From: Methanobacteriota archaeon
Lineage (GTDB): Archaea > Thermoplasmatota > E2 > DHVEG-1
Length of the DNA stretch: 64,000 nucleotides
Direction of reading: 5' to 3'
Assembly (NCBI GenBank): GCA_963769885.1
Contig: CAVYNH010000006.1
Span: forward strand, 448,001 to 512,000
Each line of letters opens with the position of its first letter. Position 1 is the first letter of the stretch. The notes beneath the pieces are model-generated. The model searched no databases. It was not told the DNA's origin and saw only the letters and a list, made by a program, of their open reading frames with translations. The translations under genes and the position numbers were made by a program. Shown here one piece after another: positions 581-38,775 of the stretch.

Positions 581-860
581 ATGTCGCTGTCACCCAACTC
601 ACCCCGTGTTTTTGTGTTGGTGGGTTGGGTGCGGTGACGTGTCCGGTCCCAGGTGTTGCAGCAGTTGGGGCCGCGGCACTGCGCGTGTCGCGACAAGACT
701 GTCGGATACCGTGGTTGTCCTGTCCTTCATCTCTTGACATTACGTCGGTCGATCGCACAGGGACCCTAAGCGGTATCAACCTGTCCCCTCAGTCTTGCCC
801 CTCCAATCATCCTGTCATGGAGGTCTTCGTACCAAGGGGTACCCAAAATTATTGCGCGGT
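581..860 (+). ncRNA. Candidate structured non-coding RNA, family unknown
   Basis: Consecutive stems at 581-640 (22 bp) and 639-679 (17 bp), and a multibranch domain at 678-860. Non-Watson-Crick pairs are nearly all G-U on the + strand. No credible ORF. Confidence 0.5.
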
Positions 861-1695: not shown

Positions 1696-1798
1696 ACTTC
1701 CACCTACAACCCCGCCAGCCCCATCACCAACCATCTATAAAAAAACTCTCACCCACCAAGAATAGGTATTTAACACAACAAATAATTCACCACCCAAG

Positions 1799-2872
1799 AT
1801 GAAAATCATCTATGGCGTCTGCTCCTGGGGCCTCGGCCACGCCACCCGCAGCCTCCCCGTCATCCGCGCCCTCATCAACGACGGCCACCTCCTCACCATC
1901 GTCTCCCACGACCGCGCCCTCACCCTCCTCAAACAAGAACTCGGCGACCACGCCCTCTACCACGACATCCCAGACTACCCCATGCTCATCAGCGACAACG
2001 GACGCCAATTCCTCGCCAAATCAGCCATCTACTGGCCCCTCTTCATCCACCGCATCGAACAAGGCCTCACCCAACTCAAAACCATCCTCGCCCACGACCG
2101 CTACCACCTCATCATCTCCGACTCCCGCTACGACATGTACAACAGAAAAATCCCCTCCCTCTTCATCAGCCACCAGATGCGCATCATGAACCCCATGCGC
2201 ATCAAACTCCTGGAGCGCGGCAGCGAACGCTTCAACCAATTCTTCTTCAACCGCTTCACCGCCGTCATCGTCCCCGACACCAAAACCCACAGCCTCAGCG
2301 GCGACCTCTCCCACAACCTCAAACTCCTCAACGAAGACGCTATCCACTACGTCGGCCCCCTCTCCGACTTCCACAAAAAACGACTCACCAAGAACATCGA
2401 CTACCTCATCAGCTTCTCCGGCCCCGAGCCCCAACGCACCATCCTCGAAACCAAAATCATGGAACAACTCCAAGACCTCCATGGCACCATCGTCATCACC
2501 CAAGGCAAACCAGAGACCGCCACCAAAACCAAAAACAAGAACATCACCGTCTACACCTCCGTCAGCCGCGCCACCAGAGAAAACCTCCTCAACAAAGCCA
2601 AAACCGTCATCGGACGCTCAGGCTACACCACCATCATGGACCTCGCCGTCACCGGCACCAAAGCCCTCCTCATCCCCACCCCAGGACAAATCGAACAAGA
2701 ATACCTTGCCACCTACCACCAACACCACAACAACTACGCCACCGTCACCCAACCCCGCATCAACCTCGCCGACAACCTCCCACGCGTCAAGGCGACCACC
2801 GGCATCACCCACGCCCCCTCAGTCAAAACCACCGTCAATAATATCCTCGACATCATCACCCAACACACCTGA
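1799..2872 (+). CDS. GT-B glycosyltransferase (GT28 C-terminal / MJ1255-like)
   Basis: GLGHATRS N-terminal motif; GRSGYTT and IPTPGQIEQ motifs. Confidence 0.85.
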   Translation: MKIIYGVCSWGLGHATRSLPVIRALINDGHLLTIVSHDRALTLLKQELGDHALYHDIPDYPMLISDNGRQFLAKSAIYWPLFIHRIEQGLTQLKTILAHDRYHLIISDSRYDMYNRKIPSLFISHQMRIMNPMRIKLLERGSERFNQFFFNRFTAVIVPDTKTHSLSGDLSHNLKLLNEDAIHYVGPLSDFHKKRLTKNIDYLISFSGPEPQRTILETKIMEQLQDLHGTIVITQGKPETATKTKNKNITVYTSVSRATRENLLNKAKTVIGRSGYTTIMDLAVTGTKALLIPTPGQIEQEYLATYHQHHNNYATVTQPRINLADNLPRVKATTGITHAPSVKTTVNNILDIITQHT

Positions 2873-2930
2873 TAAAACATCCTTACCGGAACCAGTATAA
2901 ACCGCAAGGCCTTATATCCCGATTGAGAGA

Positions 2931-4730
2931 GTGCGGAAACAGACTTCTTCACCATTTACCATTATAAAAAAATGGTATTTTTGGCTCATCCTCATCACCA
3001 CACTCGCGGTCGTACTGCGCTCCATCCCAGCCTGGACCAACGCTGCCTGGGGCAGCGACTTCGGCATCTACTACGGCCTCACCAAAGCCTTCCTCAACAC
3101 CGGTAACCTCATCAACGCCTACAACGGCTGGGGCGCCTCCTACCAATACTTCCCCGTCCTCTACCTCGTCACCGGCGCCGCCCACATGCTCTCCGGCCTC
3201 GATGTCCTCTACATCCTCCCAAAAATCGCCCCGATCTTCGGCGGCCTCACCGTCACCATCCTCTACTTTATCGTCTACGAACTCCTCAAACGCCGCGACA
3301 TCGCCCTGCTCTCCGCCGCCTTCCTCGCCGTCGCTCCCTTCCACGTCTACCAGACCAGCCACGCCGCCCCCCTCACCATGGGCCACTTCTTCATGCTGCT
3401 TTCCCTCTACCTCTTCCTCAAATACCTCCACAACCACCGCTACCTCGTCCCCCTCATCCTCTCCACCATCCTCCTCATCATGTCCCACCACCTCACCACC
3501 TACTTCTACATCATCAGCCTCTTCGGCATCGTCATCTTCCAAAGCATCTCCACCCCCCTACGCGACCTCAAACGACAAGTCACCTACGTTACCGCCTGCA
3601 GCCTCATGGCCTTCATCTACTGGTTCACCGTCGCGGTCCCCGTCTTCAACGTCTACCTCGGCAACAACCTCTTCGGCTCCCCCGGGATCCTCGTCGCCGC
3701 CTTCTACCTCGCTTTCTTCGGCCTCCTCCTCGCCTTCACCCGCCCCCAGATGCAAGCCTGGCGCCGCCACTTCGTCCTTAAACACTCGCCGAAAACCCCG
3801 AGCCCGGCCCGAGCCGGCATCCTCTTCGCCGGCACCGTCATCGGCCTGCTCTCCACGATTCTCGTCTTCTTCTTCATCCCCTTCCCAGTCTCGGTCCTCC
3901 GGATGAACACCACGACCTTGCTCTACTCCATCCCCGTCATCATCTTCACCGGCATCTGCGCCCTCGGCTTCGAGTACCTCCGCGAACTCGAGAACCACCG
4001 GATCATCCAAGGCTGGTTCTTCGCCATCTTCATCTCTTTCGTCTTCGCCTTTCTCACTGGCGATACCAAGCTCTTCCCCGACCGCCACATCGAATACCTC
4101 ATGGTCCCCATGTCCATCATCGCCGCCTACGGCCTCTACCGCTCTCTCAACAAACTCCATGTCCCAGCCTTACCCAGCCTCTCCTTAAGCAGAATCCCTC
4201 ACCGGCAATGGCTGCTCGTCGCCATCACCTGCTTCCTCGTCTGCACCAACAGCATGGCCGTCTACCCCGCGAAGAACTCCATCGGCGGCATCAACGAGAC
4301 CATCTCCGAGCCCGCCCTCAGCGCCATCCAGTGGATGACCACGACCCTAGACAAGAACCAGACGCTCGTCGCCTCCGACCTGCGCCTCACCAAGATCGCG
4401 TGGGCCGAAGGCTTCAACACCACCTTCGAGGACACCAACGAGACCTGGACGAGCACCGACTGGCACGGATGCCTCTCCGACCTCGAAGGCAACGAGACCA
4501 GAGGCCGCATCACCACTATCCTCATCGACGACGTCATGCAGACCAGCGTCGTGAACCTCGCCCTCCTCCGGAACGAATACATGACGAACGAATCCTACCT
4601 CAAATTCGCCTCCGAGCCCTTCGAGCGACTCTATCGTAACGAGACGCTGAATGCCAACGGTGAGGTCCTCCACTGGGTCGAAGTCTACGCCGTCAACTGG
4701 ACCTACATCGAACAGCAGACGACACAATAA
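2931..4730 (+). CDS. Polytopic membrane protein, probable GT-C glycosyltransferase
   Basis: Many TM segments, first-loop GSDFGIY, SHHLT motif and a soluble C-terminal domain. Follows a GT gene. Confidence 0.6.
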   Translation: MRKQTSSPFTIIKKWYFWLILITTLAVVLRSIPAWTNAAWGSDFGIYYGLTKAFLNTGNLINAYNGWGASYQYFPVLYLVTGAAHMLSGLDVLYILPKIAPIFGGLTVTILYFIVYELLKRRDIALLSAAFLAVAPFHVYQTSHAAPLTMGHFFMLLSLYLFLKYLHNHRYLVPLILSTILLIMSHHLTTYFYIISLFGIVIFQSISTPLRDLKRQVTYVTACSLMAFIYWFTVAVPVFNVYLGNNLFGSPGILVAAFYLAFFGLLLAFTRPQMQAWRRHFVLKHSPKTPSPARAGILFAGTVIGLLSTILVFFFIPFPVSVLRMNTTTLLYSIPVIIFTGICALGFEYLRELENHRIIQGWFFAIFISFVFAFLTGDTKLFPDRHIEYLMVPMSIIAAYGLYRSLNKLHVPALPSLSLSRIPHRQWLLVAITCFLVCTNSMAVYPAKNSIGGINETISEPALSAIQWMTTTLDKNQTLVASDLRLTKIAWAEGFNTTFEDTNETWTSTDWHGCLSDLEGNETRGRITTILIDDVMQTSVVNLALLRNEYMTNESYLKFASEPFERLYRNETLNANGEVLHWVEVYAVNWTYIEQQTTQ

Positions 4731-38700: not shown

Positions 38701-38775
38701 GGGCCTGTAGCCTAGACTGGATAGGGCGACAGCCTCCTAAGCTGTAGGCCGCGGGTTCGAATCCCGCCAGGCCCG
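38701..38775 (+). tRNA. tRNA-Arg (anticodon CCT), intronless, CCA not encoded
   Basis: Acceptor stem GGGCCTG/CAGGCCC, anticodon arm ACAGC-CTCCTAA-GCTGT, T arm GCGGG-TTCGAAT-CCCGC. Confidence 0.97.

Follow-up and report, generated by a model that had tools for sequence, protein, structure and literature searches.

Archaeal box H/ACA sRNAs carry one to three motifs, each with a K-turn or K-loop; the ANA box lies 14–15 nt from the target U, and the upper helix has 5–6 bp (Muller et al. 2008, PMC2377435). In Haloferax volcanii, the ~200-nt multi-hairpin H/ACA RNA sR-h45 has two hairpins separated by a 56-nt linker (Majumder et al. 2020, PMC7075261; Blaby et al. 2011 as cited there); the 5′ hairpin guides position 2605, and the 3′ hairpin guides the helix 69 pseudouridines 1940 and 1942, which correspond to E. 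coli 1915 and 1917. The same paper cites yeast snR191 as the guide for the helix 69 pair. From marine group II archaea, a highly structured RNA of 229 nt, Tan1 (“Thalassoarchaea ncRNA 1”), has been reported, with a conserved fold; it ranked fifth in RNA-seq abundance and was described from six homologues, with no function assigned (Hou et al. 2016, Sci Rep 6:35470, PMC5069720). Our literature search, under the terms used, found no description of an H/ACA RNA from Thermoplasmatota.

The window analyzed here is a 64,000-nt stretch of DNA from a 2.09-Mb, 92%-complete MAG of an uncultured Thermoplasmatota archaeon. According to its list of open reading frames, positions 272–867 form an intergenic gap flanked on both sides by minus-strand genes (Table 1). 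A first-pass annotation, made from the sequence of the window, had singled out 581–860 within this gap as a densely paired, non-coding segment of ~280 nt, and had read it as an unknown structured RNA or a single-stranded DNA element. Positions ~582–841 are a densely paired, non-coding and conserved RNA, slightly shorter (~260 nt) than had been proposed, with ends set from the limits of conservation in 62–68 homologues. It is a structured RNA gene and no single-stranded DNA element, and its class is known: read from the minus strand (841–582), it is very probably the gene of a multi-hairpin box H/ACA guide sRNA. We base this assignment on its ANA boxes, its pockets complementary to 23S rRNA, its K-turn and K-loop motifs, the co-evolution of guide and target, and a promoter of archaeal type that belongs to it. 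Within the box H/ACA pseudouridylation guides, it forms a new family.

The first-pass annotation had proposed a comparison of folding energy with shuffled sequence and a search for homologues and covariation, and both support a conserved structure. In the window’s genome, the plus strand of 581–860 folds at −118.1 kcal/mol (z = −4.3), with 0 of 200 shuffles as good, and the minus strand gives z = −2.3. Homologues are widespread in the phylum. A blastn search found one copy in 14 of 41 relatives, and an exact-pattern search retrieved 67 GTDB species genomes with a single copy apiece, every one of them from Thermoplasmatota. A covariance model, R1, built on the better-conserved 144 nt, gave exactly one match per positive genome in 52 of 151 genomes drawn evenly across the phylum, and a broader model, R2, matched 24 of 38 further genomes that had all been negative at first. 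These model searches did not find the RNA in three 99%-complete genomes of family f10 or in single genomes of eight other families. The RNA thus occurs once per genome across most Thermoplasmatota families and, as far as searched, appears confined to that phylum. Base-pair covariation is strong: in an alignment of 30 sequences (A6), 93% of cells pair, as compared to 73% in shuffled alignments and 32–50% with slid partners, and changes on both sides are seen in 22 of the 30 pairs.

The element had been said to lack signatures of RNase P, SRP and tRNA, which agrees with our results. The genes for RNase P, SRP and 5S RNA are located elsewhere in the genome, and ARAGORN finds no tRNA, tmRNA or tRNA-like structure in the element. 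At the gathering score, Rfam 15 has no match in the window except one tRNA (38701–38775, 69.7 bits), the sole Rfam match in the 64 kb, and at E-values up to 10, both strands of 250–950 give chance-level matches only. Protein coding can also be set aside: a plus-strand frame of 96 codons at 625–915 is not conserved, the longest open stretch, taken over all frames, has a median of 61 codons, and indels among homologues are not in multiples of three. A Y RNA acting with Ro60 was considered and rejected, the TROVE domain being absent.

The predicted RNA (Table 1) comprises two H/ACA hairpins, each followed by its box, and a 3′ three-way-junction domain. The box behind hairpin 1 is ACA in 62 of 68 homologues and AAA in 4. 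Behind hairpin 2, all 68 close homologues have A-N-A (ACA in 16, AAA in 23, AUA in 16, AGA in 13), and so do 48 of 49 distant matches; the remaining one is spurious. Measured from the top of the pocket, the boxes lie 14–16 nt away. For hairpin 1, the 7-nt 3′ guide and the 8-nt lower stem place the ACA 14–15 nt from the target U. For hairpin 2, the corresponding distance (7 + 7 + 2) is 15 nt if the target is U2554 (UNN), or a borderline 16 nt if it is U2555. Its upper stem reaches up to 7 bp in the family consensus (CCUCUUU/AAAGAGG), and the K-turn context above it reads UUU-GA-UC ascending and GA-nAU-GA-AAA descending. Hairpin 2 therefore lies at the edge of the published rules for box distance and upper helix, which counts against a plain H/ACA fit.

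Table 1. Features of the predicted RNA gene and its surroundings in the window, with the third hairpin of other families for comparison
Feature	Position in window	Strand	Sequence or remarks
Starch-synthase-like glycosyltransferase gene	start at 271	−	One side of the gap
OMP-decarboxylase (pyrF-like) gene	868–1734, stop codon 868–870	−	Other side of the gap, upstream of the RNA
BRE-like promoter element	873–878	−	Minus strand reads CGAAAG; directly before the A/T-rich box
TATA box	865–872	−	Minus strand reads ATTAATGA; position-specific consensus; overlaps the pyrF-like stop codon 868–870
Predicted transcription start	near 840–842	−	
Whole predicted RNA, ~260 nt	582–841	−	Hairpin 1, ACA, hairpin 2, ACA, 3′ three-way-junction domain
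H/ACA hairpin 1	785–839	−	Covariation in both stems
Hairpin 1 lower stem, 8 bp	832–839/785–792	−	CCCCUUGG/CUGAGGGG, two G-U pairs
Hairpin 1 5′ guide strand	824–831	−	UACGAAGA
Hairpin 1 upper stem, 6 bp	818–823/800–805	−	
Hairpin 1 K-loop	806–817	−	UGAC..AUGAU; U-GA...AU-GA-U, at sequence level
Hairpin 1 3′ guide strand	793–799	−	GGCAAGA
Hairpin 1 ACA box	782–784	−	Directly behind the lower stem, 15 nt past the upper stem
H/ACA hairpin 2	705–777	−	Guide strands invariant across the phylum
Hairpin 2 lower stem, 7 bp	771–777/705–711	−	Covaries widely, with many compensatory changes
Hairpin 2 5′ guide strand	762–770	−	CUUAGGGUC
Hairpin 2 upper stem	757–761/719–723	−	5 bp certain in the window’s genome
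Hairpin 2 predicted K-turn	GA 754–753, AUGA 730–727	−	Ascending GA, descending AUGA, at sequence level
Hairpin 2 apical mini-hairpin	736–738/744–746	−	
Hairpin 2 3′ guide strand	712–718	−	ACAACCA
Hairpin 2 ANA box (ACA here)	700–702	−	Two bases past the lower stem
3′ domain “type A”, three-way junction	582–695	−	Folds of 12 diverse homologues, RNAalifold, alignment A8
3′ domain P1 closing stem	690–695/582–587	−	UGUCGC/GCGACA
3′ domain long hairpin	641–677	−	Conserved loop CUGCUGC(UUUA), reverse complement of 658–664
3′ domain second hairpin	591–603/619–631	−	Invariant core CACCCAAC/GUUGGGUG
3′ domain junction ACA	588–590	−	
Third hairpin (other families)			Lower stem of 9–10 bp, pocket GGGUCA(G)/GUUAC, upper stem, canonical K-turn, apical stem, ACA immediately behind

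About half of the helices that had been marked on the plus strand recur in this fold, some of them in part. Pairings 705–711/771–777 and 800–805/818–823 are kept across relatives with compensatory changes, as is the hairpin at 641–677 that had been drawn as stem 639–656/661–679. From the proposed stem 717–723/757–764, the inner 719–723/757–761 is retained in the same manner. The longest stem, 581–603/619–640, divides in two: compensatory changes maintain 591–603/619–631, and the outer part (581–590/632–640) is private to the genome or genus and competes with the conserved closing stem 582–587/690–695. Neither 694–701/790–797 nor the small hairpin 829–833/838–842 is conserved, both being peculiar to the genome or genus. 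The proposed closure of a large domain by 678–685/853–860 is likewise unconserved, and its 853–860 side belongs to the promoter spacer rather than to the RNA.

Transcription, protein binding and the modifications themselves are predictions. Each H/ACA hairpin would bind L7Ae through its K-loop or K-turn, motifs characterized by tandem sheared G-A pairs, and Cbf5–Nop10(–Gar1) would bind the lower stem and the ACA or ANA box. The two strands of the internal loop would then base-pair with 23S rRNA so as to flank an unpaired uridine, for conversion to pseudouridine by Cbf5. A Cbf5 gene (DKCLD domain, 49 bits) is present at C5:132338 of the window’s genome; Gar1 was not detected by Pfam in that genome or in G178, a genome considered below.

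We scanned the rRNAs of the window’s genome for sites matching the two pockets. The 23S rRNA gene lies at C5:179601–182799, with a 5S rRNA gene (C5:179442–179561) 40 nt from it; the 16S gene stands alone at the end of another contig (C6:~783950–785480), and unlinked rRNA genes are usual for Thermoplasmatota. The best bipartite match of hairpin 1 is CUUGC-UA-CUUCG, which forms 5 + 5 pairs with the guides GCAAG and CGAAG. By-eye alignment around A2503 places the unpaired U of this target at E. coli 2496, in the peptidyl-transferase center, which we take to be yeast 25S pseudouridine 2865 (snR46). Hairpin 2 matches best in the A loop, at GGUUGU-UC-GCCC(AU), with 6 + 4 pairs in the window’s family, and would modify U2555, or U2554 if UNN; this site is presumably that of yeast pseudouridine 2923 (snR10). 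Its 5′ guide thus has only 4 pairs in the window’s family, and in most other families the 5′ guide is AUGGGU, which adds two pairs (6 + 6). The two sites lie 59 nt apart in domain V of 23S rRNA. Shuffled pockets equal these numbers of pairs at some site of the rRNAs in 22–32% of cases, so that matches in a single genome are within chance. The targets are convincing not by match score alone, but because the rRNA-paired guide bases are exactly those that are invariant across the phylum, the two sites lie so close together, and guide and target change together.

Most Thermoplasmatota families have in addition a third hairpin, which folds as a textbook H/ACA unit (Table 1). Its K-turn follows, at sequence level, the order NC stem-GA-C stem/C stem-NNN-GA-NC stem, and its pocket is complementary to helix 69 (GUAAC-U-A-UGACCC), with 5 + 6 pairs and U1915 left unpaired. 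It was the helix 69 sequences of relatives that gave this pairing; the scan of the window’s own rRNA does not return the site, because position 1915 is C there. U1915 is an almost universally conserved position of 23S rRNA. We compared helix 69 and domain V in 16 relatives. All nine genomes with the third hairpin have U1915 (GUAAC-U-AUGACCC), and all five with the type A 3′ domain have C1915 (GUAAC-C-AUGACCC): two from family f1, among them the window’s genome, and three from f9. Helix 69 reads GGGGGUAAC-C-AUGACCC in the C1915 genomes (G000, the window’s genome, and loci L131, L133, L140, L145 and L146), and 11 other Thermoplasmatota have U. Families f1 and f9 belong to one class, so the change at U1915 may be a single event, and its co-evolution with the RNA may reflect no more than one or two. 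In family f4, a third domain is absent altogether. The other two sites show similar correspondence. In G042, the hairpin 1 target CUUCG has become CUCCG (U to C), and the guide has changed from A to G to match. In G091, a one-contig genome of 1.5 Mb (L141), the RNA was not found and the U2555 position is A, the A loop being GGGGCUGUACGCCC in place of GGGGUUGUUCGCCC.

An alternative is that the RNA is H/ACA-like and has other true targets, in tRNA or other RNAs, or serves as a chaperone without modification. The chance-level score of the single-genome matches leaves room for such a reading, and archaeal H/ACA RNAs can guide several sites or sites in tRNA (PMC2377435, PMC2651775). We consider it very improbable, since the three predicted 23S sites are just where the guide bases kept throughout the phylum would pair, changes in the guides accompany changes in the targets, and an H/ACA RNA is proven to act on the helix 69 site in Haloferax (PMC7075261). 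As guides for 23S rRNA, the RNAs of this family predict three specific pseudouridines in the ribosomal catalytic core of Thermoplasmatota.

In families f1 (that of the window) and f9, the type A 3′ domain takes the place of the third H/ACA hairpin. It begins 3–4 nt past the ANA box of hairpin 2 and is therefore part of the same transcript. It is not an H/ACA guide unit, as it has no pocket and no K-turn, and its junction strands are not conserved. The CUGCUGC loop of its long hairpin is complementary to GCAGCAG in the loop of 23S helix 91, between the two target sites, and also to 16S rRNA; exact matches are 7 nt only, many more sites match when G-U pairs are tolerated, and the complementarity is not decisive. 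The rRNA sequence GCAGCAG is the same in families without the type A domain. In the minus sense, the loop motif CUGCUGCUU recurs in other structural contexts in a few families, at L097:3001–3137 (G060), L128 (G176) and L124 (G045). In G060, a hairpin stands in for hairpin 1, and the motif makes up its 3′ strand of 14 nt. This recurrence suggests a movable antisense or protein-binding element. The domain might serve as an extra rRNA tether via the helix 91 loop, or as a platform for another protein. It is conceivable, if rather doubtful, that it is a new functional module that replaced the helix 69 guide hairpin in lineages where U1915 had become C. If so, these archaea would be without the pseudouridine that is most conserved in ribosomes and would have put the slot of its guide to a new use, a natural case of a guide hairpin replaced after its target uridine had mutated.

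The RNA is read from the minus strand. The first-pass annotation had preferred the plus strand, finding that deviations from Watson–Crick pairing there were mostly G-U. That holds in the window’s genome alone, one of the few exceptions in which the plus strand folds better, which explains the earlier choice. Across the family, the minus strand folds better in 57 of 62 homologues for the 582–695 domain and in 49 of 62 for the rest of the RNA, and RNAalifold gives the 3′ domain −22.0 kcal/mol on the minus strand as compared to −6.6 kcal/mol on the plus strand. In the model alignment read in the plus sense, 37 cells are A-C or C-A, as against ~11 G-U cells outside one invariant column. One example is an outer stem, GACACCA/UGGCAUC, in which two plus-strand mismatches are wobble pairs on the minus strand. 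In the window, the hairpin 1 lower stem has two C-A/A-C mismatches on plus that become G-U pairs on minus. The conserved U-N-U preceding each plus-strand domain is the A-N-A behind each minus-strand hairpin.

The positioned promoter also lies on the minus strand. At about −38 to −23 from the first hairpin, 102 homologues (67 close, 35 distant) have a purine-rich CRAAA with an A/T-rich box behind it, in every lineage and independent of the adjoining gene. Such a pair is the archaeal BRE and TATA box, at the right distance for a start site. We predict that transcription starts from here; in the window, the promoter extends over the stop codon of the pyrF-like gene upstream. Upstream on the plus strand, no positioned TATA or promoter signal was found among homologues; a scan for sigma-70 promoters and intrinsic terminators, signals not relevant for archaea, found none. 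A novel structured RNA or single-stranded DNA element of the plus strand would draw on the stronger folding z-score of that strand in the window’s genome and on one invariant U-G pair. It is extremely unlikely given that most homologues by far fold better on the minus strand, that A-C mismatches on the plus strand exceed variable G-U pairs, and that only the minus strand has the promoter; moreover, the “invariant U-G helix” is formed by the two guide strands of hairpin 2, conserved because of their pairing with rRNA. Several plus-strand ideas of our own, a T-loop (UUCGAA), repeated UCAU loops as a sponge for a KH protein, and an 11-nt receptor, fell with the correction of strand: UCAU on the plus strand is the AUGA of the K-turns on the minus strand, and UUCGAA is a guide strand. 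As a practical warning, counting G-U pairs in a single genome can indicate the wrong strand.

The minus strand is also that of both flanking genes, contrary to the first-pass reading of an RNA opposite to them. The pyrF neighborhood is retained in the window’s order. Between families, the genes adjoining the RNA are entirely different, yet the RNA is retained, which argues for a stand-alone RNA gene rather than a cis-regulatory element. A cis-acting part of a minus-strand mRNA, whether a 3′ UTR belonging to the pyrF-like gene or a 5′ leader or riboswitch ahead of the glycosyltransferase gene, would accord with the position of the element between two minus-strand genes and with the conserved pyrF neighborhood, but is hardly credible when the neighbors change wholly between families, every lineage has the RNA’s own promoter, ~310 nt separate the RNA from the glycosyltransferase start, and complementarity to rRNA explains the conserved bases.

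Further features of the surroundings were noted. In ~6 families, a small stand-alone Toprim-domain protein (130–170 aa) divergently adjoins the RNA gene (L103:2466–2987, L114:800–1228, L124:1827–2321, L101:3405–4157, and contigs of G043 and G055). This synteny raised the protein as a partner of the RNA, an idea that we rejected: it is found in 137 of 151 genomes of the phylum, including families that lack the RNA, and so has no phyletic link to it. In families f4 (L088, L089, L105) and f9 (L090, L091), the RNA gene abuts the 3′ end of a convergent open reading frame or overlaps it by ~20 nt; the product is ketopantoate-reductase-like (MKFIIFGAGAIGS...). In the window itself, 1700–4700 shows a very strong strand composition bias, with GC skew down to −0.7. 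It spans the plus-strand genes 1799–2872 and 2931–4730, with a coding strand rich in C and A and poor in G, and gives rise to long spurious open frames on the opposite strand.

Among known systems, the yeast guides snR46, snR10 and snR191 presumably act on the same ribosomal sites, through machinery of the same type. Unlike the Thermoplasmatota RNA, eukaryotic guides are H/ACA snoRNAs of two hairpins and lack K-turns. The H/ACA sRNAs of Pyrococcus abyssi (Pab35, Pab105 and others) are alike in having one to three hairpins with a lower stem, pocket, K-turn or K-loop and ANA box, and in targeting functional centers of 23S rRNA (PMC2377435). The Thermoplasmatota RNA differs from sRNAs of this type in that it has no detectable similarity to them in sequence or to their Rfam models, that the third unit in the window’s family is a non-H/ACA three-way junction, and that the hairpin 2 upper helix can extend beyond theirs, to the 7 bp given above. 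Haloferax sR-h45 is alike in target, its 3′ hairpin having the same one as the third hairpin of most Thermoplasmatota versions. The two RNAs differ in that hairpins 1 and 2 of the Thermoplasmatota RNA are directed to different sites of domain V, and in that UNUN is unpaired in sR-h45 where the Thermoplasmatota helix 69 hairpin has UN.

With this RNA assigned to the H/ACA guides, a gene that uncultured archaea carry phylum-wide would gain a function. Its carriers include marine benthic group D, probably also marine groups II and III, and others; it is absent from Rfam and either unannotated or mis-stranded in genomes. The RNA and Tan1 are alike in length, phylum and complexity. In G178, a rhodopsin-bearing genome of 1.9 Mb from family f31, the Thermoplasmatota RNA has a length of 197 nt, taken from hairpin 1 through the last ACA, and U-rich tracts lie 12–25 nt beyond that ACA. 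The RNA and Tan1 probably belong to the same family, and a guide function would then probably explain Tan1, which is among the most abundant unexplained transcripts of marine group II.
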